A DNA stretch of 64,000 nt from Candidatus Micrarchaeota archaeon (GCA_021811435.1 JAJZOR010000003.1:20434-84433); one strand, 5' to 3'; positions 1 through 21,196 are shown, counted from the stretch's first letter. Made by a program: numbers and translations. The notes: generated by a model from the letters alone, not told the origin.

Positions 1-556
1 GGTAGCCTTGTTGATTATATCCGATTTAAATAAGTAGCGGCCAGTAAATGCAGTTATTTTGTTACCTTTATCTAGTATATACTCAGGAATGCCGACTTGG
101 AAGCTCTGCGGATTTGTAAAAGCTTCCTTTATGAATACTGGAATCGGCATTTCTGAATTATAAGCCAACGCCTCTGCTATACCAAGGCGAGGAAGGGCAT
201 ATATGTCTATGTAACTTTTATGCGCATCTGCTATGAGCACTTCTTCATAATACTCTTTTTGTGACATGCCATTTACGCATTTGAGCATGTCGTTATAATA
301 TGCAGCTATAGCTAAACCATCAGTGTCAACTGCAGCTAAGATAGACTTAGAAAGTGCTTCTGCAGTAGTAGGTTCACCGCTTAATACATGCGCAGCATAT
401 ACACCAATTATCTGGGCCAACTAGAGTCGCAACTCCATCCCCATTTCGCAGAACCTTTTCTATCTTAACTTCTATTTCATCTCCTATTTCGACAGGAGCG
501 TTAGTAACAGGAATTCCTTGCGACATTTTATCCACAAATATATTCGACAACAGCAT
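1..556 (-). CDS. hypothetical protein with TRAM-like N-terminus; frame interrupted near 405-425; 3' end beyond the window
   Basis: ATG 556-554 overlaps the stop of the upstream gene (TGATG). Track ORF 374-559 reads PVEIGDEIEVKIEKVLRNGDGVATLVG and then stops. My hand translation of the adjacent frame stays open from ~421 to base 1 (AQIIGVYAAHVLSGEPTTAEALSKSIL...FKSDIINKAT). The distal part matches no family I recognise. Confidence 0.4.
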
Positions 557-1239
557 CAATCAATTACTCCGTCCTTCTTGAACCTTATAAGCGCGCGTAT
601 GAACTCAAGCTCGTCGAACTCGCCCATCCCGCCGAGTTCTGCCGCGACCTTTTCCGCTTCGTATGCATAAGGCTTGCCGGCTACTTCTGGCGGAGCCGCA
701 TAAGGCTGCTGCATCTCCTCCGGGCTACGCTTCCTTGTGTTTATCAGCTTGTCGCATATGTCTGAGATTTGCAGGTCCTGGAATATCTGGTCGGAGTGCT
801 TGGACACCCTCGTGTTTGCCAGCCTCCGCTTTATCTCGTCTATCGGCATCTCGGTTATTATTATCAGGTAGTAGTCATCGTGCTCCTTTGACTCCATGAA
901 CCTTTTCATCTTCCTTATGAAATCGTAATTGAAGAAGTCGCCCCCATGCGGCTCGAGTATCACGGTCTTGCCGTTGCATTTCGGGCTTTCCAGATCGAAA
1001 TCAGGCGTGTATATGCGCACGCTTCCGTCTTCCTTGCTGGTATATTCTATGTGGTGCTGAGTGATATGCCTTATCTGCAGCTTATTCAGTATCGAGTCGA
1101 CCCTTTCTTCAAAGTCTGAAAGCAGCTCGTTCCCGTTGTTTACGGCCTTCGCAGGGCTGCCCCTGATCAGACCGGTCAGATTTTGTGCAGATTCCCGGCC
1201 ATTTTCAGGGCCCGCCGTTTTTTCTTCAGCCAAAACCAC
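556..1239 (-). CDS. hypothetical protein, tandem paralog 1, putative PD-(D/E)xK-like core
   Basis: Track ORF with GTG start. Roughly half identical by eye to ORF 1938-2702. Shared blocks: FEERV.xILNK, HITQHHI, YTPDFDLESP, GKTVILEPHGG, YYLI.IT, ELGGM..F...EFIR.LIR.K.DG. Its own TATA box lies 28-39 nt upstream. Confidence 0.75.
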   Translation of the reverse strand: MVLAEEKTAGPENGRESAQNLTGLIRGSPAKAVNNGNELLSDFEERVDSILNKLQIRHITQHHIEYTSKEDGSVRIYTPDFDLESPKCNGKTVILEPHGGDFFNYDFIRKMKRFMESKEHDDYYLIIITEMPIDEIKRRLANTRVSKHSDQIFQDLQISDICDKLINTRKRSPEEMQQPYAAPPEVAGKPYAYEAEKVAAELGGMGEFDELEFIRALIRFKKDGVID

Positions 1240-1266
1240 ACCCTTTCCTAATTTTAATTATCCGCT

Positions 1267-1278
1267 GCACATATATAA
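1267..1278 (-). promoter_or_regulatory. TATA-box promoter of paralog 1 (TTATATATGTGC on the minus strand)
   Basis: This 12-mer is identical to the one at 2729-2740 and sits at the same spacing from the GTG GTT TTG GCT start. Confidence 0.6.
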
Positions 1279-1343
1279 GAGATTCCTTTTGGCAGACGAG
1301 GTGAAAGCGGCATCCTAACGCCCCAAAGAGCGCATTGGAACCG

Positions 1344-1772
1344 CTAAAGCGGCGGGAGGCCGAAGTCGCCCACGTGCACGTACATGCCGCCTATCCACAA
1401 TGTCTCCGTGGCCTTCCTGCTTTTTATATAATCATTCAATGCGCCGGTGCTTTCGAAAGAGTCTATCACGATGCTGAATTCGTGCCTGCCGCCATTGAAG
1501 TCCTTGAAGTCCTGACTTTCATAGTATATCTCTGCATTGTCCTGCTCGAATTTCTCCTTCTGGGCGAGCTCCAGCAGCTTCTTCCCGGATGGCGAGTCTA
1601 GTCTCTCGAGCAGCAGGGGCGAATCCTTGCCGCGGTGGTCGTAGCTCACCCCGCGCAAAGAATTGAATATCAAGTATGCGAGCTCTTTCGCTTCGTGCCA
1701 TTCCTTCCGTTCGCCCGTCTGGTCGGCCGCTTTTTCGGTCGCTTTGACTATGCAATATATGTTATACCACAC
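1344..1772 (-). CDS. hypothetical acidic protein (142 aa) between the two paralogs
   Basis: Track ORF with GTG start. TATA-like TTTATAAG lies ~35 nt upstream (1807-1814), and GGTGG sits just before the start. No family recognised. Confidence 0.55.
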   Translation of the reverse strand: MWYNIYCIVKATEKAADQTGERKEWHEAKELAYLIFNSLRGVSYDHRGKDSPLLLERLDSPSGKKLLELAQKEKFEQDNAEIYYESQDFKDFNGGRHEFSIVIDSFESTGALNDYIKSRKATETLWIGGMYVHVGDFGLPPL

Positions 1773-1937
1773 GCTACCACCAATTTGGATACTATCCCAT
1801 TAATCTCTTATAAACATTTGCTTGGCATGAACGCGGATCCGCATTCATATGGCAGATGCAGGCGTGGCGGATTGAGATGCGCTAAAGCGTGCCGGGAAAC
1901 CCGAAGCCGCGTAGTGCTATGGATGGTAAACGCGAAG

Positions 1938-2702
1938 TCAATCGACGATTCCGTCGTCCTTGAGCCGGATAAGCGTGCGTATGAACTCGCGGTCATCGAA
2001 TCTCTTCATCCCCCCGAGTTCGTCGCTCACTTTCTGGGCATCTGCCCAATGGGGCTTCGCAGAGTTTTTGGGGTCGCTGCCCTCTATCTTCTTCTGCACC
2101 TCCTCGTCGGTACGCATCCTTGTGGTTACCATCTTGTCGCATATGTTGGACACGTCGAGGTTCCTCTTTATGTGCTTCCGCCTAGCGTAGTCGGCCAGCA
2201 TGTCGTTTATCTCGGCCACGGGCCTATCAGTTATCATTATCAGGTAGTAGTCGCTGTTGTGCTCCTTCGAATCCATGAACCTTATCATCTTTTCGAAGAA
2301 CTTGTCATTGAAGTACCTCCCTCCGTGAGGCTCGAGTATCACGGTCTTGCCCTGGTATTTTGGGCTTTCCAGATCGAAATCGGGCGTGTAGATGTAGGGC
2401 CTCTGCTGGCCGCTCTCGTCTGTCCACATCTTGCTTCCGTTCTCGTCGCTGTAATTTATGTGGTGCTGTGTTATGTGTTTTATCTGGATCTTGTTCAGTA
2501 TGTCTTCTACCCTCTCTTCGAAGCTCGAGAGCAGCACTACATCTCCGGTGTCTTCTATCTCTCCCTCAATGGCAGATTTGAGCGCCGCATTTGGCGTATC
2601 TGTATGCAGAGTGTTATCCGTTTCCCTGAGCAGTTCAGTCAAACTTTGCGTGAGCCCTAAGTCCCTTTGCCAAGATGCTATTTTTTCTCCAGCCAAAACC
2701 AC
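1938..2702 (-). CDS. hypothetical protein, tandem paralog 2, putative PD-(D/E)xK-like core
   Basis: Paralog of 556-1239. I place the start at GTG 2702 (GTG GTT TTG GCT, as in paralog 1). The ATG at 2735 used by the track lies inside the TATA box. Confidence 0.75.
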   Translation of the reverse strand: MVLAGEKIASWQRDLGLTQSLTELLRETDNTLHTDTPNAALKSAIEGEIEDTGDVVLLSSFEERVEDILNKIQIKHITQHHINYSDENGSKMWTDESGQQRPYIYTPDFDLESPKYQGKTVILEPHGGRYFNDKFFEKMIRFMDSKEHNSDYYLIMITDRPVAEINDMLADYARRKHIKRNLDVSNICDKMVTTRMRTDEEVQKKIEGSDPKNSAKPHWADAQKVSDELGGMKRFDDREFIRTLIRLKDDGIVD

Positions 2703-2728
2703 ACCTCTACTTATTTTACTTTGACAAC

Positions 2729-2740
2729 AGCACATATATA
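2729..2740 (-). promoter_or_regulatory. TATA-box promoter of paralog 2
   Basis: Same 12-mer TTATATATGTGC (minus strand), 27-38 nt upstream of GTG 2702. Confidence 0.6.
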
Positions 2741-2775
2741 ATTGGTCCCTTTTGCGGAAATTTCCTGCTTCACTG

Positions 2776-4005
2776 TCAGGCGCCCTTACCGAGCCACTTT
2801 ATTTCCTTGTCCGAGAGACCGTACCTTGATTCGAAGAATGAGTAGGCCTCCTCCTCCATGCCATGCTCATGCGCCAGCCTTATCATAGAGTTGAATATGG
2901 GGAAATATTCGCTCGCTATGACCTTGAGGCTGGCGTGTATGGTGCGCTGCATCTTCGCGGCTATCTGCTTGTCGGTGCCCCTGCCCTCCTTCGATGCGCT
3001 CAGCTCCTTTATCACCCTTGGGAATGCGTATCTCTTGAACGTGGTAGGTGAATGCCGCTTTGCCAGCGCGACGCCGCTTGACACAAGAAGGCTTGAGTAC
3101 TTCCAGTAGTTGTAATTCTGCGACCTCATCGCGCGCGACAGGAACATCGTCGATCTTGCTATGGAATCGTAAGCCGCGGATATGTCTGAAGGATAGGAGT
3201 ACCTGTTAGGTATGTTCTCCTCCATCCAGTTAACCACCATGTCCAGCTCTATGTCCCCTGATATGGAACGCTGGGCGCTCTGCGACGCTGCAATCGTGTA
3301 TGAGGAGAATATGCGGTCCAGTGCGGTGAATATCTCTGCCTTGCGGTCGCGGAGCCCTATTATGTCTGTGGCTTCATCGCCCGCGCCGGACAGCGCGAAC
3401 GCGTCCATGAACGCGCTCCTGACGTCGCCAGCTGCGGTCTTGGCTATGGCAGCTATCATTACCCTGCTCAGTCCGAGCTTACGGCTATCCGACAGCCTTG
3501 TGAGCGCGCTTGCCATCGTGTCTTCCGGCACCTTGGTGAACCTGACGTCATCGGTGAGACCGCGCAGGAACGCTATGCTCTTGTCCCATTTGTCGTTCGC
3601 TATGAGCATTATGGGACTCTTTGACTCGCGTATCAGCCTGGGTATGGCGGTGTTGGCGCCCTTGTCGAACTTTGGCGCGAGCTCGTCTATCTCGTCCAGT
3701 ATTATTACGTTCCTTTTGCCGAACAGCGTCCTGGAGTTGGATGCCGAGATGAGCACCTTCTCTATGGTCTCCTTGTCCCTGTAGTCGCTGGCGCTTAGCT
3801 CAACCATGTTCCACTTGAACTCGGATGCCAGCGCATGGGCAGCAGCAGTCTTGCCGGTGCCCGACGGGCCGTAGATCAGGAGCGGGCGGCGCTTTATCCC
3901 ACGCTCCACGTCGCTTGCGAACTTCCTCAGCTCCGCTACGGCCGCGCCGTTGCCAATTATCTCGTCAAGCGAGGCTATTGCAATGCTGTATTGCGACGTT
4001 TCCAT
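2776..4005 (-). CDS. rfcL: replication factor C large subunit
   Basis: Walker A LLIYGPSGTGKT and the DEID box (ILDEIDEL), an AAA+ clamp-loader layout. The start is probably ATG 4005 (METSQYS, preceded by GGTGTGGGG) rather than the track start at 4053. Confidence 0.85.
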   Translation of the reverse strand: METSQYSIAIASLDEIIGNGAAVAELRKFASDVERGIKRRPLLIYGPSGTGKTAAAHALASEFKWNMVELSASDYRDKETIEKVLISASNSRTLFGKRNVIILDEIDELAPKFDKGANTAIPRLIRESKSPIMLIANDKWDKSIAFLRGLTDDVRFTKVPEDTMASALTRLSDSRKLGLSRVMIAAIAKTAAGDVRSAFMDAFALSGAGDEATDIIGLRDRKAEIFTALDRIFSSYTIAASQSAQRSISGDIELDMVVNWMEENIPNRYSYPSDISAAYDSIARSTMFLSRAMRSQNYNYWKYSSLLVSSGVALAKRHSPTTFKRYAFPRVIKELSASKEGRGTDKQIAAKMQRTIHASLKVIASEYFPIFNSMIRLAHEHGMEEEAYSFFESRYGLSDKEIKWLGKGA

Positions 4006-4169
4006 CCCCACACCGCTGAAGGAATACCAGGACCTAATATGGACTACAACCATTGTATATTCCGATTTTATTGAAACGATAAGGTATTTAAGAATTGCAC
4101 AGTGATATATAGAGGTACTGCCTTCGGGCAGGCGCCAGGCGCTCCGTTATAGAGTATGCGGGTAAGCAC

Positions 4170-11052: not shown

Positions 11053-12198
11053 TCACTCAATAAGCCCTAGCTTCCTGAATACACCATCGTAGAATTCGTA
11101 CGTCCTCGCGGCGGAGAATAAGCTAAGGTTTTCTTCATGCCTAATGTACTTGCTTTTGTCATTGCCGTTTAAGATTTCTAGGACCTTATCCGGCAGTTCA
11201 ACTTCAGCCTCGACCACGCACATGTCCCTGACCTCTTTTGGTATAGGGGAGTAGTCAGGAAGCACGACTGGGGTGCCCAAAGCTATACTCTCTATGGTTA
11301 TTATGCTCAGCCCTTCGCGCTCTGACATCATCAAGAAGAGGGCTGAAGTTGCTATGTCATCGTATAGCTTTGTTTTATCCTTGTCGTTGTAGAATGGCTT
11401 AAGCTTGATATTCTTTTTTATGCCAATTTCGTTTACCATTTTACGTATGTTGGCCTTTTCCGGCCCGTTACCTATTATTACGGCCCTGACATCCGGCATC
11501 GATCTAGCCACTTTTTTAACAATATTCAGGATTTCGTCTATTTTTTTCTCCTTTATTAAGCGGCCGGAGAAGATAATCTTGTGCCTCTCGTAATTGTGAT
11601 GCTTGTCTCTTATTTTGGCAAGCTTATCAGTGTCGGTAACCGGAACGAATACGCCGCCGATCCTGTGCTCGCCAATTCCACTAGCCCTTAACCTCCGCTC
11701 CACCTCTGATGAGTTTATTATATACATGTCAGCGGAGCCGAAGAAGAAGTTGACGAACATGAAAGCGATTGAGCTTAGGCGCTTACCTAGATACGCATCC
11801 CAGTATTTTTTGTCCCATATCTCAGCGACATCCATTATCATCTTGCAACCTGTAATCTTACAGTATAACTTGATTATAGGAAGATGTAGATACGGGAATG
11901 CGTTCGCTTCTATTACGTCGAATTTGTATCCAAAAATCTTTACCATATTAATAGAGAATATTATAGCCTCTAGTATGGACCGCCGCCCATGAGAAAATAG
12001 CCTCTCCTGCGTGATCTTATGATAGGTGTGGTAGTGCACCTTATTGTACGTGAAGTGCCTGGCCATGCCTGGCCAGCGCATAGAGAAGAAGTGTACTTCA
12101 TACCTTTTTGCAAGTTCCATCGCCTCTATGTTTTCGATGGTGGCGACTCCGCCGATATTCCATGGATATGCGACGTCTGATACGAATGCTATTCTCAT
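11053..12198 (-). CDS. GT4-family glycosyltransferase
   Basis: MRIAFVSD...GG N-terminus and the EREGLSIITIE (E-x7-E) motif. Confidence 0.8.
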   Translation of the reverse strand: MRIAFVSDVAYPWNIGGVATIENIEAMELAKRYEVHFFSMRWPGMARHFTYNKVHYHTYHKITQERLFSHGRRSILEAIIFSINMVKIFGYKFDVIEANAFPYLHLPIIKLYCKITGCKMIMDVAEIWDKKYWDAYLGKRLSSIAFMFVNFFFGSADMYIINSSEVERRLRASGIGEHRIGGVFVPVTDTDKLAKIRDKHHNYERHKIIFSGRLIKEKKIDEILNIVKKVARSMPDVRAVIIGNGPEKANIRKMVNEIGIKKNIKLKPFYNDKDKTKLYDDIATSALFLMMSEREGLSIITIESIALGTPVVLPDYSPIPKEVRDMCVVEAEVELPDKVLEILNGNDKSKYIRHEENLSLFSAARTYEFYDGVFRKLGLIE

Positions 12199-12226
12199 TT
12201 TACCAGCTATGTAGAAGTAAAAGCAA

Positions 12227-13762
12227 CTAGGTGCCCGAATTAGTTTCGTTATCGTAAAATTGTATTAAATAGGTTAACCCGTCATTCAGGAATGAATAAT
12301 TTGATATTATAGGATGCGCTAAAATATATGGTACCTTGATTATATGGGTTATTGGTATTTTTTGGTAATAAGAAGCTGAGACGGACACATTTGCTTGTGC
12401 GGGCCCAGGCGTTACCAGCGCATAATATATGCAGCTTTCATTTGACATGGGTACTCTCAGTTCGATAGCGGTTTTATTCAATTCGCTGATATTACTGTTT
12501 GATAGGAATTTGCTTAGATAGTACGGATAGGTCTGGGTTATGCCCCATATCAATGAGGTAGCCTGCGATAGATTAGAAAGTCCACCTAAAACGAAAGCGC
12601 TTATTGTTTTGTTTGCAGTTATTTCGATTGTGGCGGACATGGCCACAGAAGGCGTGCAGTAAGATTCGGTTGAATAATACGGGCTTAGGGATGTATAAAA
12701 TCCATAGGTTGCGTTCTTTTCTTCATCCTTATAAGCTGTTATTGTCTTATTTATGCTCATATTGCTGAAAACGCCGCGTATTTGGCCAAAAGTTGCTTTC
12801 AAGTCGGTATACGTCTTTATATCGCTGGATTGGTTATATGGCTGATAAGCTGACGCTATAGAAGAGTCCAGCCTTGCATCGTTAGGTAAAAAGACTAACC
12901 TTATATGCTCCGTAGTGTATGGAGCTATCTTATTCAGTGACAGCGCTATGTATACCGAAGTTTGATTTGCGTATTTAGAAAATGGTATCCCAGTGCCATT
13001 CTGATAAAAAAAACGCACGTTGCTGAGATTGTTATTTGCGCCGTAATACTCGAAGTCTGAATAAACGGTATGGTTAATCGCTAAATTATAAATTAAAGTG
13101 CTAGGGGTTGAAATATTATTGGTGTTAAACAGCGTTATGTTTATGTAAGGCAGGCCGCTCAAAATTAGATGCGGACCGGCAGGCCATATCGGGGCTATTA
13201 GTAGTACAAGACCGGCTATGAGTACAAATGGCGTTATAACATTTGATTCATGGATCGATAACATTCTTACTTTCTTACTCGTTCTCATTTTGCCAGCTTT
13301 AACGATTAGGGTTATTAGCATAGATATAACTGCACTTATAAGCAGGTAATATCCGATAACTGCGACGTTAATTGCAAGGAAGCCGAACTGATTGAATTTG
13401 ATAATATAAAGTAGTAGCGGCATCACTAATGCCAAATATGAGTACGGTGTCAAAGCTTTTGGAACAAGATACGGAATTACGATTGTGGCTATAATTATAA
13501 TAATTGCATAAATAGGCAGTAGACTAGAGATGTTCACAAAATATATAATTTCGCTAGAAGAGATAAGTATTACAGCAATTATTATAGCGTTCTCTGTGTA
13601 ATTTTTATGACTTGAAAGCAAAAAACCAAGTCCGATGAATATAATGAGCGAATATAATATCATAGTGCTATTATTAAGTACAATAAAATATGCCAAGAAT
13701 ATTGAGGTTAGCATTCCGTATATAAAAATGGTAAAATTCTTGACGGCATTTTTTTTATACAT
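12227..13762 (-). CDS. polytopic membrane protein with a sequon-rich extracellular C-terminal domain
   Basis: Several N-terminal TM helices. I count 18 N-x-S/T sequons in the last ~310 residues. No family recognised. Confidence 0.6.
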   Translation of the reverse strand: MYKKNAVKNFTIFIYGMLTSIFLAYFIVLNNSTMILYSLIIFIGLGFLLSSHKNYTENAIIIAVILISSSEIIYFVNISSLLPIYAIIIIIATIVIPYLVPKALTPYSYLALVMPLLLYIIKFNQFGFLAINVAVIGYYLLISAVISMLITLIVKAGKMRTSKKVRMLSIHESNVITPFVLIAGLVLLIAPIWPAGPHLILSGLPYINITLFNTNNISTPSTLIYNLAINHTVYSDFEYYGANNNLSNVRFFYQNGTGIPFSKYANQTSVYIALSLNKIAPYTTEHIRLVFLPNDARLDSSIASAYQPYNQSSDIKTYTDLKATFGQIRGVFSNMSINKTITAYKDEEKNATYGFYTSLSPYYSTESYCTPSVAMSATIEITANKTISAFVLGGLSNLSQATSLIWGITQTYPYYLSKFLSNSNISELNKTAIELRVPMSNESCIYYALVTPGPAQANVSVSASYYQKIPITHIIKVPYILAHPIISNYSFLNDGLTYLIQFYDNETNSGT

Positions 13763-17831: not shown

Positions 17832-18978
17832 TAGCTTCCCTTGAAAGTCTTACAATACTTTCGGTGCAGAAAGCAACGCCTCTATAGGTATCAGAGGTGT
17901 GATACTCCTTATCGTTTCAGGAGTCATCGACTTTACGAAACGATTAATCACGAATCTTATTTGTTTGATACTCTTGAAGTTGCGGTTGTTGAGGAGTTTG
18001 TCCCTGAAAAAATTGTGCACATACTCTTCCGGATTGAGTTCTGGCGAGTATGGCGGCCCGAAAAGGGGTTTCATATTATCCCGTTCGTTGAAGAACCTGC
18101 TGACTTTTTCGCAGTGATGCACTTGGCTGTTGTCCATTATTATAAGCATTTTGTCATCAGGATATCGCAGTTCTATCTTGTGTAGGAGATGCAAGAATGA
18201 ATCCGCTTTGGCGGACTTTCTCACGGTCTCGATTATCGTTCCCTCAGTTACTTCAACCACTCCGAAGTAGTTCGCCTTTTCAACACCGTTCTGCGGTGCT
18301 TCTACAACAAGCCTCTGGTTGTACGTCCATCCATATCCATTCCGTGCAGATATCGATACGGCCATTTCGTCGAGAAACAGTATCTTTGTGAAGTAGCCTG
18401 TCTGTATTAGGAAGAGCAGGTTTTGGGCGAATTCGATCTGCCTTTTCAGATTGCCTTCCTTGTATCGGAGTTGTGCCTTTACGTAATGCGCGCCGGTGGT
18501 TATGAGGTGCACTCTGAAGGTCTCTTCATCAATGAATTCGCCCCTGAACTTCATGAAGTACTGCTGCAATTCCTTAGTAGTGTATGACGAGGCGTTTATT
18601 CCGTATTTCTTTGGGTTGTTTTCGTCGATAAGGCGGTGAATCTCTTTCTCATCATCTTTGGTGATTTTCGGCGGTCTGCCGCTTCGCTGTTTATCAGAAG
18701 CACTTCTGTCTAGGATCCACTTCTTTATCCAGTCGTAGATTGTGGATTCTTCCACATCGATTATCTCCGCAACAACATTGACGGATTTTCCTCTACTTAC
18801 TGCATATAGCGCCGCATATCGTATCTTCTCCTTCGCATCCTTGCAGTTTTTGTAAAGGTCGCCAAGAATGTTGGAGTCGCCTTCCAACATGGTCGTCCTT
18901 TGTATTTGGATAGAAAACGATAACAGCTTTGCGGAACGCTTATAGTAGTGGAAGTTGTATTACTTTTCAGGGTTGCTA
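17832..18978 (-). mobile_element. IS630-family insertion sequence with imperfect terminal inverted repeats and a TA target duplication
   Basis: Left end TAGCTTCCCTTGAAAGTCTTACAA versus reverse complement of the right end TAGCAACCCTGAAAAGTAATACAA. TA flanks both ends (17830-17831 and 18979-18980). A single DDE transposase ORF lies inside. Confidence 0.85.
17850..18890 (-). CDS. IS630-family DDE transposase
   Basis: N-terminal HTH (STIYDWIKKW) followed by FLDEM, IIMDNSQVHH and PPYSPELNPEEYVHNFF (DD..E). Confidence 0.85.
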   Translation of the reverse strand: MLEGDSNILGDLYKNCKDAKEKIRYAALYAVSRGKSVNVVAEIIDVEESTIYDWIKKWILDRSASDKQRSGRPPKITKDDEKEIHRLIDENNPKKYGINASSYTTKELQQYFMKFRGEFIDEETFRVHLITTGAHYVKAQLRYKEGNLKRQIEFAQNLLFLIQTGYFTKILFLDEMAVSISARNGYGWTYNQRLVVEAPQNGVEKANYFGVVEVTEGTIIETVRKSAKADSFLHLLHKIELRYPDDKMLIIMDNSQVHHCEKVSRFFNERDNMKPLFGPPYSPELNPEEYVHNFFRDKLLNNRNFKSIKQIRFVINRFVKSMTPETIRSITPLIPIEALLSAPKVL

Positions 18979-19043
18979 TAAAACTGCAACGTCAATAACC
19001 TCTGGAGTGGTTTTAATAGCTTGAAAAATTAGAAGGCGTTAAT

Positions 19044-20042
19044 TTGGAAGTAACAATAGCGATACCGATATACAAAACAACACAAAGCATATTCAAACTC
19101 TTGAACACAATAAAAAAACAATCTTATCAGAACTTTAACATACTAATTATATATAAAGAATGGCCAGGATGCGAAGGAACAATCTCAAAAATAAAAAAAT
19201 ACAGAGACCTGAGGATAGAGGTGCTTAAACAAGATCAGGGTTATTTTGAAGAAGCACTTAATATGATTTATAGAAAAGCGGATGGAGAGATAGTTATACA
19301 TACCGATGATGATGCCTGGATATCGAAAAACTGGGTTAAGGACCATGTCGAATTGCACAAGAAATACAAAAAAGTGGGTATGGCCACAGGCATGGTAATA
19401 GAAGATATACATCCAAATGGCACGCCGCTACCGTTTTTCAAAAAACTGATAAACGACAGTAAATGGCTTATGAACAAACACACCATAATAGATAAACTTA
19501 TAGATGACAGATTTAATGGATATGGTATGTACATAGGAAGATCCGGAATGCTAGTTGATACAGGCAAAAGATATGACATGATAAAGACCCTCAAGCAACA
19601 TGGTGTGAACATGAGCTGGAAACGCGAGGCACTGGAAGGATTCAAGCTTCCGGGATTTACTAGGTACGGTGGTGGAAACGAAGCGTGTGCAGCACTAGAG
19701 ACACTAAATAGAGGGTATATCCCGATTTGGTTTAACGGCGCACAGACATTCCACCCCATCCACGAATCGCTAAGCAGAGGCACTTCAGTTTCCACACTGC
19801 CTATCGGGTTAACTGCAGAAAGAGTATTATTCTCTTATTATACGAGCAATGTTGCCGGCTACAATGTCGATTTAGATACGTTAAGATTAAGGAACAAGTT
19901 AGATATCTTATTGGCCTCATTCATCTCAAATAGTGCCAAACGTAGCTATAGGCTGGGATATGAAATAGCAAATGAAGCTATAGAAAAGTCATGGTCGGCA
20001 AAAATGGTAAGGAAAGAATTAATTGCTAGGTTGAATGAATAG
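19044..20042 (+). CDS. GT2-family glycosyltransferase
   Basis: IAIPIYKTTQSI...QSYQNFNILII plus HTDDDAW (DxD). Confidence 0.75.
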   Translation: MEVTIAIPIYKTTQSIFKLLNTIKKQSYQNFNILIIYKEWPGCEGTISKIKKYRDLRIEVLKQDQGYFEEALNMIYRKADGEIVIHTDDDAWISKNWVKDHVELHKKYKKVGMATGMVIEDIHPNGTPLPFFKKLINDSKWLMNKHTIIDKLIDDRFNGYGMYIGRSGMLVDTGKRYDMIKTLKQHGVNMSWKREALEGFKLPGFTRYGGGNEACAALETLNRGYIPIWFNGAQTFHPIHESLSRGTSVSTLPIGLTAERVLFSYYTSNVAGYNVDLDTLRLRNKLDILLASFISNSAKRSYRLGYEIANEAIEKSWSAKMVRKELIARLNE

Positions 20043-20050
20043 GTGGCTTA

Positions 20051-21196
20051 TTGAAAGTTTATCTTATAACGCCCGTAGATCTTAAATACAGTTACAGAGC
20101 TACAGAGGAACATGTTTACAGCTACGCGAAATATCTAAAAGAGCACGGAATTGACGCAGAAATACTCATCACTAGAAAAGGCGAAAGGCAGCAAACGTTA
20201 CTACCAAATTATAAAGAAGTAATAAAACTCTACGATAATATAGCGAAGAAACACGTCAGGTGCAAGGAAATTGTCTTGCCACTCAAATGGCACATATTCA
20301 TCTATAAAGATCTGCCTAAGGGAGGCGCTATATACTTCCCATATGGCATTTATGACTATCTGTTTAACATACTTTTCAAGCCAGAAGGGCAGAAGTATGT
20401 AATTGGAAGCCACAGCATGCATCTTAAGATGGGTCACATGCTAAAGAATCACGAAAAGATTGAATGGCTTCTAAATTTCATAGTTAAAAGCATTTTATTC
20501 CTGCGCAGAAAAGAAAAGGATGACATATATTTCCACGTGATAAACAGCATGCAGGAAGCTTATCTAATAAAGAACTTTAAGATAAATAAAAAAAACATCT
20601 TCTATGTACCAAATTTTATCGATACAAGCAAGTATAGTCTAGCAAAAAACAGTTCGAAGAAGCTCAGAGTTGTGCATATCGGCGGAATGGAAAAGGATGC
20701 AAGCACAGTATTTGATATTGTAAAATTGCTGAAAGAAAAACGCGTTTTAGACAGATTCGAATTTTATTTTATTGGAAAACTAAACAAACAGATAGAAGAG
20801 CAGTATGGCTCCTTAAAAAATGTACATATACTAGGTCAGATAGACGATTGCGCTAAGCTTAAAGCATTAAGCAGCGCGGACTGCATGATAATACCTTCAT
20901 ATGAGGCATTTCCGAAAACATTATTAGAAGGATTACTGTCTGGGCTATATATACTAACTAGCAAAAGAAATTCTGTGTGGCAAGATTTCATAGATTTTGG
21001 AATACGGATGTTTGTAGCAGAAAATGGTTTTTCTGAAGAATATCTGCAAGCGATAATGAATCTTTCAGAAAAAAAGAGCAAAGGCACTAATATAAATCCA
21101 TATAGAGAGTTCAACAGAAATACAATAATCAAAAATTTTGACAAAGGAAATGTGTTAACACAAATATTTAAAATGTTCAAAACAGTGGAAAAATGA
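20051..21196 (+). CDS. GT4-family glycosyltransferase
   Basis: C-terminal SYEAFPKTLLEG (E-x7-E). Overlaps the next gene by ATGA. Confidence 0.7.
   Translation: MKVYLITPVDLKYSYRATEEHVYSYAKYLKEHGIDAEILITRKGERQQTLLPNYKEVIKLYDNIAKKHVRCKEIVLPLKWHIFIYKDLPKGGAIYFPYGIYDYLFNILFKPEGQKYVIGSHSMHLKMGHMLKNHEKIEWLLNFIVKSILFLRRKEKDDIYFHVINSMQEAYLIKNFKINKKNIFYVPNFIDTSKYSLAKNSSKKLRVVHIGGMEKDASTVFDIVKLLKEKRVLDRFEFYFIGKLNKQIEEQYGSLKNVHILGQIDDCAKLKALSSADCMIIPSYEAFPKTLLEGLLSGLYILTSKRNSVWQDFIDFGIRMFVAENGFSEEYLQAIMNLSEKKSKGTNINPYREFNRNTIIKNFDKGNVLTQIFKMFKTVEK

Follow-up and report, generated by a model that had tools for sequence, protein, structure and literature searches.

The stretch of DNA analysed here (the window), 64,000 nucleotides from Candidatus Micrarchaeota archaeon (GCA_021811435.1 JAJZOR010000003.1:20434-84433), carries near its first letter two paralogous protein genes, A1 and A2, with the gene of a small orphan protein, B, between them. 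Comparison of sequence profiles shows that the A1/A2 family is homologous to T7 endonuclease I, the gene 3 product of the phage and an enzyme that cleaves branched DNA, across the core formed by a helix with a glutamate, a PD pair and an ExK-type strand. By analogy with the phage enzyme, and with a confidence that goes slightly beyond an even chance, we propose that A1 and A2 would be chromosomal, metal-dependent DNA endonucleases of the branched-DNA type, which possibly form a heterodimer with B as their partner or regulator. The genome that contains the window (1.1 Mb, 93% complete) and the related contigs, which come from metagenome-assembled genomes (MAGs) of Ca. Micrarchaeota/Micrarchaeaceae, belong to the DPANN archaea. 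In such reduced genomes, of about 1 Mb, genes under purifying selection tell us what the cells cannot lose.

Distant relatives of T7 endonuclease I

Direct scans of A1, A2 and B against Pfam, NCBIfam and PADLOC returned nothing significant, and neither A1 nor A2 matched the Pfam family Phage_endo_I (PF05367) even at E<=1. The link with endonuclease I emerged only from a profile of 50 homologs, which in an hmmsearch comparison matches the PDB chains 1fzr, 1m0d and 2pfj, all of them T7 endonuclease I, with E-values from 2.5e-7 to 3.4e-7. When aligned by hhalign with T7 gp3 (taken from NC_001604), the match has a probability of 96% and an E-value of 4.8e-9 over 55 columns, and the motifs S-x-F-E44, YTP-D80-F and L-E96-P-H98-G of A1 are paired with S-x-x-E20, YTP-D55-F and V-E65-T-K67-G of the phage protein. 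PF05367 itself is matched at E<0.01 by nine of the 50 members, the best scoring 24.5 bits and others 12.8-18.8 bits, all under the gathering threshold of 29.1. Moreover, A1 and one of its relatives match PHROG families described as “endonuclease” and “Holliday junction resolvase”.

An earlier note, made from the window alone, had read in both paralogs the motif order E ... PD ... ExH of a PD-(D/E)xK-type nuclease in which histidine stands for lysine. This order holds across 70 homologs collected from genomes, and the family can now be placed more closely, as a distant relative of T7 endonuclease I, by Pfam, profile, hhalign and PHROG matches. The three acidic columns and the proline are near-invariant (E in 63/65, P in 69/70, D in 70/70 and E in 68/70), and the position of the ExK lysine is occupied by histidine in 67 of the 70 homologs and by lysine in the other three, which support the equivalence of the two residues at this position. 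The putative catalytic residues are E44, D80, E96 and H98 in A1, and E62, D108, E124 and H126 in A2.

The AlphaFold2 (AF2) model of A1, built on the 50-sequence alignment, has a predicted local distance difference test (pLDDT) score of 87.6; the model of A2, with seven sequences, was poor (59.5) and was left unused. In the A1 model, a disordered N-terminus (residues 1-37) is followed by an alpha-beta-beta-beta-alpha-beta core (about 38-175) and by a helical C-terminal part, with helix 42-53, strands 64-67, 74-77, 81-83 and 91-98, helices 105-116 and 118-122, and strand 123-129. Residues 176-227 make up a 50-aa extension of two helices, for which neither Pfam nor the PDB offers any match. This core fold, together with the PD...ExH signature, places the family within the PD-(D/E)xK superfamily. 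A Foldseek search of BFVD with the A1 model recovered phage endonuclease I, DUF2726, TnsA-N and DUF559 proteins (probability 1.0, E 3e-5 to 1e-3), and the top matches in the PDB were Cas4, Can2, NucS/EndoMS, RecE, PspGI and TnsA, all of them PD-(D/E)xK proteins and all weak (E 6.5e-3 to 0.2).

The family and T7 endonuclease I (PF05367; 1fzr, 1m0d, 2pfj) have in common the PD-(D/E)xK fold and the same succession of a helix with S-x-x-E, a hairpin ending in YTPDF and a strand with E-x-[K/H]-G, and AF2-predicted phage relatives are among the best structural matches. On the other hand, the phage enzyme has 149 aa, whereas the family members have 180-250 aa with a C-terminal half of their own (YYLIxITD and ICDE motifs), and Lys67 of the phage enzyme corresponds to histidine in nearly the whole family. 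The A1/A2 subfamily further adds its disordered N-terminus and the 50-aa C-terminal extension, and is acidic, with an isoelectric point (pI) of 5.2 versus 9.5. Unlike the phage gene, A1 and A2 are chromosomal genes of archaeal cells, two co-conserved paralogs accompanied by an orphan partner, and dimer swapping and junction cleavage would be expected by analogy.

Two other groups deserve comparison. The archaeal resolvases Hjc/Hje (PF01870) belong to the same superfamily and presumably have the same class of substrate, branched DNA, but there is no sequence match with the family, and A1 and A2 lack any match to PF01870. The genome of the window has its own Hjc on the same contig (E 6.7e-18). 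A replacement of Hjc by the family is ruled out by the presence of Hjc in this genome and in 290 of the 301 genomes of the phylum that were sampled, which makes the family an addition to Hjc. The N-terminal domain of TnsA (PF08722), DUF2726 and DUF559/Vsr-like proteins share a similar minimal fold and the PD...E-x-(K/H/D) layout, with weaker fold and profile matches; they fall below endonuclease I in every comparison, and the context of A1 and A2 contains neither a TnsB/C transposon nor mismatch-repair genes.

Gene arrangement, promoters and start sites

The features of the window were read at positions 1-4053, where all genes lie on the minus strand:

2776-4053, minus strand: replication factor C large subunit (RFC-L; NF003229, 283 bits, above the cut-off), directly upstream of A2
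2691-2741, minus strand: promoter and start block of A2, with the TATA-like TTATATATGTGC at 2730-2741, a 27-nt spacer, and GGTGTGGTTTTGGCT at 2691-2705 (likely Shine-Dalgarno site and start)
1938-2702, minus strand: A2, the derived endonuclease-I-like paralog, 254 aa from the GTG at 2702 or 252 aa from the TTG at 2696
1867-1917, minus strand: copy of about 50 nt of the 3' end of B and its downstream flank (source 1330-1377), just past the A2 stop
1807-1819, minus strand: TATA-like box of B, AAATGTTTATAAG, kept in three species
1344-1772, minus strand: B, orphan protein of 142 aa, pI 5.2, between A2 and A1
1228-1278, minus strand: promoter and start block of A1, with TTATATATGTGC at 1267-1278 and GGTGTGGTTTTGGCT at 1228-1242
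556-1239, minus strand: A1, the paralog nearer the ancestral form, 227 aa, or 225 aa if started at TTG
374-559, minus strand: remnant of a TRAM gene, a 61-aa open reading frame (ORF) with the 44 N-terminal codons of an 82-aa TRAM protein and an out-of-frame tail
1-420, minus strand: C-terminal remnant of a 352-aa ORF, which runs off the window and follows the intact TRAM gene in sister strains

The order of transcription is therefore RFC-L, A2, B, A1, the TRAM-like ORF and the ORF at 1-420. The two ORFs that the earlier note had described as about half identical stand at their coordinates on the minus strand, with 49% identity over their full length (BLASTP E 5e-76); A2 differs from A1 by a longer N-terminal region and by an insertion of about 13 aa ahead of the YTPDF strand. 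The 142-aa ORF between them, with a TATA box of its own, is likewise as described, except that its label as “acidic” does not set it apart: B has a net charge of -6, and its pI is that of both paralogs.

The claim of an identical 12-mer at the same spacing before both paralogs was borne out. TTATATATGTGC occurs exactly twice in the 64 kb, once ahead of each gene, and in both cases 27 nt separate it from the shared GTGGTTTTGGCT. The homology of the two upstream regions begins about 25 nt before the TATA box. A 10-mer, TTATATATGT, is retained in each of the six A promoters across the three species in which the genes were compared, and AAATGTTTATAAG is found ahead of B in 3/3 species, though synonymous sites are saturated. 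The retention of both elements at a synonymous divergence (dS) >1.2 indicates that they are maintained by selection. As for the start codons, the paralogs do share the block GTG GTT TTG GCT, and the part of the earlier claim that probably does not stand is the use of GTG as the start, since public gene calls place the start of both proteins two codons further on, at the TTG (252 and 225 aa). Given this choice of the gene callers, the shared GGTG upstream of the TTG is probably a Shine-Dalgarno site instead of a start.

A conserved cassette and its history

The order A2-B-A1 is kept in three species of the genus. Beyond A1, in 3/3 species, lie the convergent genes of EndoQ (PDB 5zb8, E 1e-51) and of Nth (endonuclease III, TIGR01083), and on its upstream side the cassette adjoins RFC-L in two species and, in the third, enolase. 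For the window's own genome, Nth and the EndoQ homolog, which matches the P. furiosus EndoQ at the level of E 1e-51, converge on the cassette from the left of the window (G000:C1 at about 18336-20301; L037:10336-12302). The cassette thus sits in a small replication/repair neighbourhood, with RFC-L on one side and EndoQ and Nth on the other. In the sister species flanked by enolase (L004), the presence of this gene in the place of RFC-L points to a local rearrangement. The same species has a TnpB-like gene with a Cas12f1-like_TNB domain inserted past Nth (12175-13421), and a phage-type integrase (L004:43-804) 8 kb upstream of the cassette.

Protein B is rare: single-sequence and profile searches recovered five clusters in 5.8 billion proteins, and scans with PDB profiles, Pfam and PHROG gave no known relative. 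Each copy of B seen in its context adjoins an A gene of the subfamily with the C-terminal extension, and this extension (about 50 aa, LGGxxxFDxxEFIRxLI) occurs only in B-linked A proteins. The fifth B cluster comes from a genome of a different GTDB family of the order (G101), where B lies directly upstream of an A homolog that also carries the extension. The suggestion of the earlier note that the small ORF is a partner of the nuclease genes is therefore supported, as B is conserved beside one nuclease subfamily in three species and in G101.

In a maximum-likelihood tree, the six A proteins of the genus form one clade (support 100/99), inside which the A2 proteins are monophyletic (100/99), and the A protein of G101 is the sister of the A1+A2 clade (95/77). 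The B-then-A pair of G101, together with its sister position in the tree, indicates that B followed by A was the ancestral two-gene unit. The same evidence shows A2 to be a duplicate of A made in the ancestor of the genus and copied together with its promoter. The three genes are under purifying selection, with ratios of nonsynonymous to synonymous substitution (dN/dS) of 0.07-0.21 for A1, A2 and B and with dS >1.2 between species.

This history differs from the one suggested previously, where an [A+B] unit had been duplicated and one of its B copies had decayed; only A and its promoter were copied. The observation behind that suggestion is itself sound, because the DNA 3' of A2 (1867-1917) resembles the 3' end of B (1330-1377) beyond chance: the local score is 21, and the best of 500 shuffles reached 17. 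The repeat of about 50 nt is found only in the species of the window, in which the spacer between A2 and B measures 165 nt versus 109-115 nt in the sister species. Since synonymous sites are saturated, a neutral remnant of the ancient duplication would be unrecognisable, so by sequence comparison the repeat must be a recent and species-specific local duplication. A decayed second B copy is accordingly ruled out by the tree, the gene order of the outgroup G101, the dS >1.2 and the absence of the repeat in the sister species.

A small orphan gene directly upstream of a nuclease gene, and, wherever its context was seen, tied to a single A subfamily, is also what a toxin/immunity or defence module would look like. 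A would then be a toxic nuclease, B its inhibitor encoded upstream, and the duplication would have added another toxin with the same control elements. The toxicity of T7 endonuclease I in cells that express it is notorious, and type II toxin-antitoxin systems and colicin DNase-immunity pairs offer an analogy, in which a nuclease that may be toxic is encoded in close linkage with a small lineage-specific gene. The subfamily linked with B is alone in having an extra C-terminal domain, a possible docking site for an inhibitor; moreover, the distribution of the family within the order is patchy, no genome outside the order has it, and its gene tree mixes genera of both taxonomic families, as horizontal transfer would. 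Against this, no known antitoxin or immunity family is homologous to B, and B and A have separate conserved TATA boxes, in the genus as in G101, instead of a single autoregulated operon. Synteny of the cassette holds across three species with saturated synonymous sites, its GC content is native (49-58% around the insert at 1-560), and the genes that surround it are housekeeping genes (RFC-L, EndoQ, Nth, enolase and FtsZ). PADLOC matches none of the five proteins, about 90% of the family members occur without B, and there are no adjacent defence genes; the defence-island setting that the earlier note had considered did not appear, and neither did a mobile-element context. We regard a toxin/immunity system as unlikely, and less likely than a chromosomal role in DNA repair or recombination.

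A possible second system for branched DNA

In the branched-DNA nuclease that we favour, A1 and A2 would dimerise by exchanging the helix and strand at the N-terminus, with two chains contributing to every active site, as in T7 endonuclease I. The enzyme would cleave branched or distorted DNA, such as four-way junctions, forks or flaps, in repair or recombination and besides Hjc. The two paralogs could act as a heterodimer, or as two dimers of different specificity; a heterodimer would be the most economical solution, because A1 and A2 are co-retained in three species, are both catalytically intact and share the same promoter block. To judge from its exclusive association with the C-terminal extension, B probably binds this 50-aa segment, where it could work as a regulatory or an inhibitory subunit.

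A bolder form of this model, drawn from the same analogy and to be taken as tentative and rather doubtful, would give the Micrarchaeales a second system for branched DNA besides Hjc. In it, a Glu-x-His enzyme would work only as an A1/A2 heterodimer, its two composite active sites would not be equivalent, and B would gate it by docking on the novel C-terminal domain. If true, this would be a new nuclease-plus-inhibitor, or nuclease-plus-regulator, architecture in DPANN archaea.

Several observations weigh against the proposed function. No chain of T7 endonuclease I appears among the top 50 Foldseek matches of the A1 model in the PDB, where the template modelling (TM) scores are about 0.25-0.3 and E >= 6.5e-3. 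T7 endonuclease I is a domain-swapped dimer with composite active sites (PMC3424549), and the swap in the crystal chains plausibly explains why they fail to superpose on the folded-back monomer of the model. The hhalign match spans just 55 columns, no member of the family attains the Pfam gathering score, and the catalytic lysine is histidine in nearly all members. A pI of 5.2 for A1 and A2, when that of T7 endonuclease I is 9.5 and the family median is 8.4, is odd for a DNA-binding enzyme. Furthermore, the family is patchy, with copies in about 58% of the order's genomes and in no genome outside the order, and across 64 loci the wider family has no universally conserved neighbour, the repair-gene surroundings being held within the genus only. 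Finally, the pairing of A1 with A2 and the binding of B to A are pure inference.

PCNA-binding (PIP) motifs were sought by eye only, and none was convincing. A literature search found no paper tying Micrarchaeota to endonuclease I or to junction resolvases.

What the homology already provides is an assignment to the T7 endonuclease I lineage for an order-specific family that had remained unannotated, every named public copy being a “hypothetical protein”. It also brings a second candidate nuclease for branched DNA beside Hjc in Micrarchaeota, and a natural Lys-to-His variant of the textbook active site of junction-resolving enzymes. The pair of paralogs could probe how domain-swapped resolvases evolve from homodimer to heterodimer, B may be a new regulator or inhibitor of nucleases, and a thermostable or acid-tolerant enzyme of the endonuclease I type could serve as a reagent for mismatch or junction cleavage.

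The TRAM gene and an AT-rich insert

The third proposal of the earlier note was an RNA-processing module. On this reading, the nucleases would act on RNA together with a translationally coupled TRAM RNA-binding protein. Part of its basis is firm. The stop of A1 does overlap the start of the TRAM-like ORF (TGATG, at 556-560), and the intact allele of the sister strains encodes a bona fide TRAM domain (82 aa, 42 bits). The ORF of the window, which aligns with that allele over the first 44 residues only, scores 15.6 bits (E 0.015) against the Pfam PF01938 cut-off of 21 bits.

The comparison of strains accounts for this difference. The window strain is 99.9-100% identical to contigs L007 and L009, and the sister strains L008 and L010 part from its sequence 41 nt past the A1 stop, where they continue with the intact TRAM gene and then with the 352-aa ORF, a protein without any Pfam or PHROG match. 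The window strain has a divergent allele, in which about codon 44 of the TRAM gene is fused out of frame to the C-terminal half of the 352-aa ORF, with the loss of about 0.7 kb. The polymorphic segment after A1 corresponds to window 1-560, L008:10141-11460 and L007:10141-10830.

The segment at 1-560 has 39.5% GC, versus 49-58% around it, and belongs to an insert that separates A1 from the convergent EndoQ gene; the other two species have A1 and EndoQ side by side. The TRAM gene is thus part of a species-specific AT-rich insert, does not occur in the cassettes of the other two species and is broken here, which leaves it outside the unit: the TRAM ORF is an unrelated decayed insert. Of the expected co-occurrence of A, B and TRAM genes, only that of A and B survives, and the TRAM-like gene loses its place as a member of the module. 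RNA processing as the function of the cassette is for these reasons very improbable; the TRAM gene is also missing from G101, the deletion that truncates it leaves A1, A2 and B intact, and the catalytic core is of the type found in DNA junction nucleases. A TRAM-based RNA-processing module is ruled out by the absence of the gene in other species, the GC content of the insert and the truncation of TRAM beside three intact genes.

Distribution and origin of the wider family

Close homologs of A are few: seven clusters among the 5.8 billion proteins, which correspond to three species with both paralogs each and to one short fragment. An exhaustive HMMER search of 1.84 billion representatives yielded 47 relatives, mostly of 180-220 aa. 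Of the 301 genomes sampled from the phylum, 76 have the family; these all belong to the order of the window (two GTDB families), and the family occurs in 0 of roughly 170 genomes from other families of the class. Two copies per genome are found in 15 of the 76.

This patchy distribution and the recurrent duplications, together with the fact that the nearest relatives in sequence and fold are phage proteins, raise the question of a viral gene, domesticated or selfish. The family would then descend from the endonuclease I of an archaeal virus or plasmid, and would be kept as a mobile or provirus-derived nuclease that resolves or packages the DNA of the element, for instance, and does not serve repair in the host. 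The enolase-flanked species, with its integrase at 8 kb and its TnpB-like gene at 2 kb, would fit such an origin. However, the flanks of the cassette contain no viral or plasmid genes in the window, in L001 or in G101, its composition is native and its three genes are all under purifying selection. The wider family also occupies stable chromosomal spots, such as that between RIO-kinase-like and aIF1A-like/aIF2beta-like genes in eight loci of five genera. A viral or mobile origin in the distant past is likely, and the present genes behave as resident chromosomal genes; their maintenance as a mobile or provirus-derived nuclease is quite unlikely.

Recurrent neighbours limited to sub-lineages are NreA, PolX, an XPF-type ERCC4 nuclease (Pfam-confirmed), and RIO-kinase-like and aIF1A-like genes, the names of the RIO kinase and of the initiation factors having been read from the sequences with no family scan. 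Repair genes thus recur beside the family in a lineage-specific manner. In the second GTDB family, a single-copy member lies directly downstream of a RIO-kinase-like gene of about 255 aa in eight loci of five genera (L067, L068, L079, L080, L086, L094, L095 and L097); in L068, L080, L095 and L097 it is convergent with the aIF1A-like gene, with the aIF2beta-like gene behind in three of them. The ERCC4 nuclease is encoded two to three genes upstream of the family member in loci of this second GTDB family. Other members adjoin NreA (Nre_N and Nre_C; L014:8390-9679 and L043:7613-8881) or a PolX-PHP polymerase (L013:4020-5750).

A separate tandem duplication has taken place in another genus (L085:6972-8229 and L088:6997-8260), where about 52 nt, without a B gene, separate the two copies, each of which keeps the YREE, PDF and LEPH motifs. 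In the second major clade of the family, a short member of 143 aa (L076:7003-7434) shows a weak Pfam match to DUF5750 in its C-terminal half (E 3.3e-4), which may link the C-terminal region of the family to an existing archaeal DUF. Several of the family-bearing MAGs are labelled by NCBI as “Candidatus Marsarchaeota archaeon”; for two of their contigs the genome search suggests the Micrarchaeales family of the window itself, and the label may be wrong. Lastly, in a congener (G150) and in another genus, a protein of about 910 aa, which combines a long stretch of coiled-coil-like sequence with a calcineurin-like (Mre11-type) phosphoesterase domain at its C-terminus, is encoded directly upstream of the single-copy member and on the same strand (L046:4253-6982, with homologs in L048, L052, L056 and L060).

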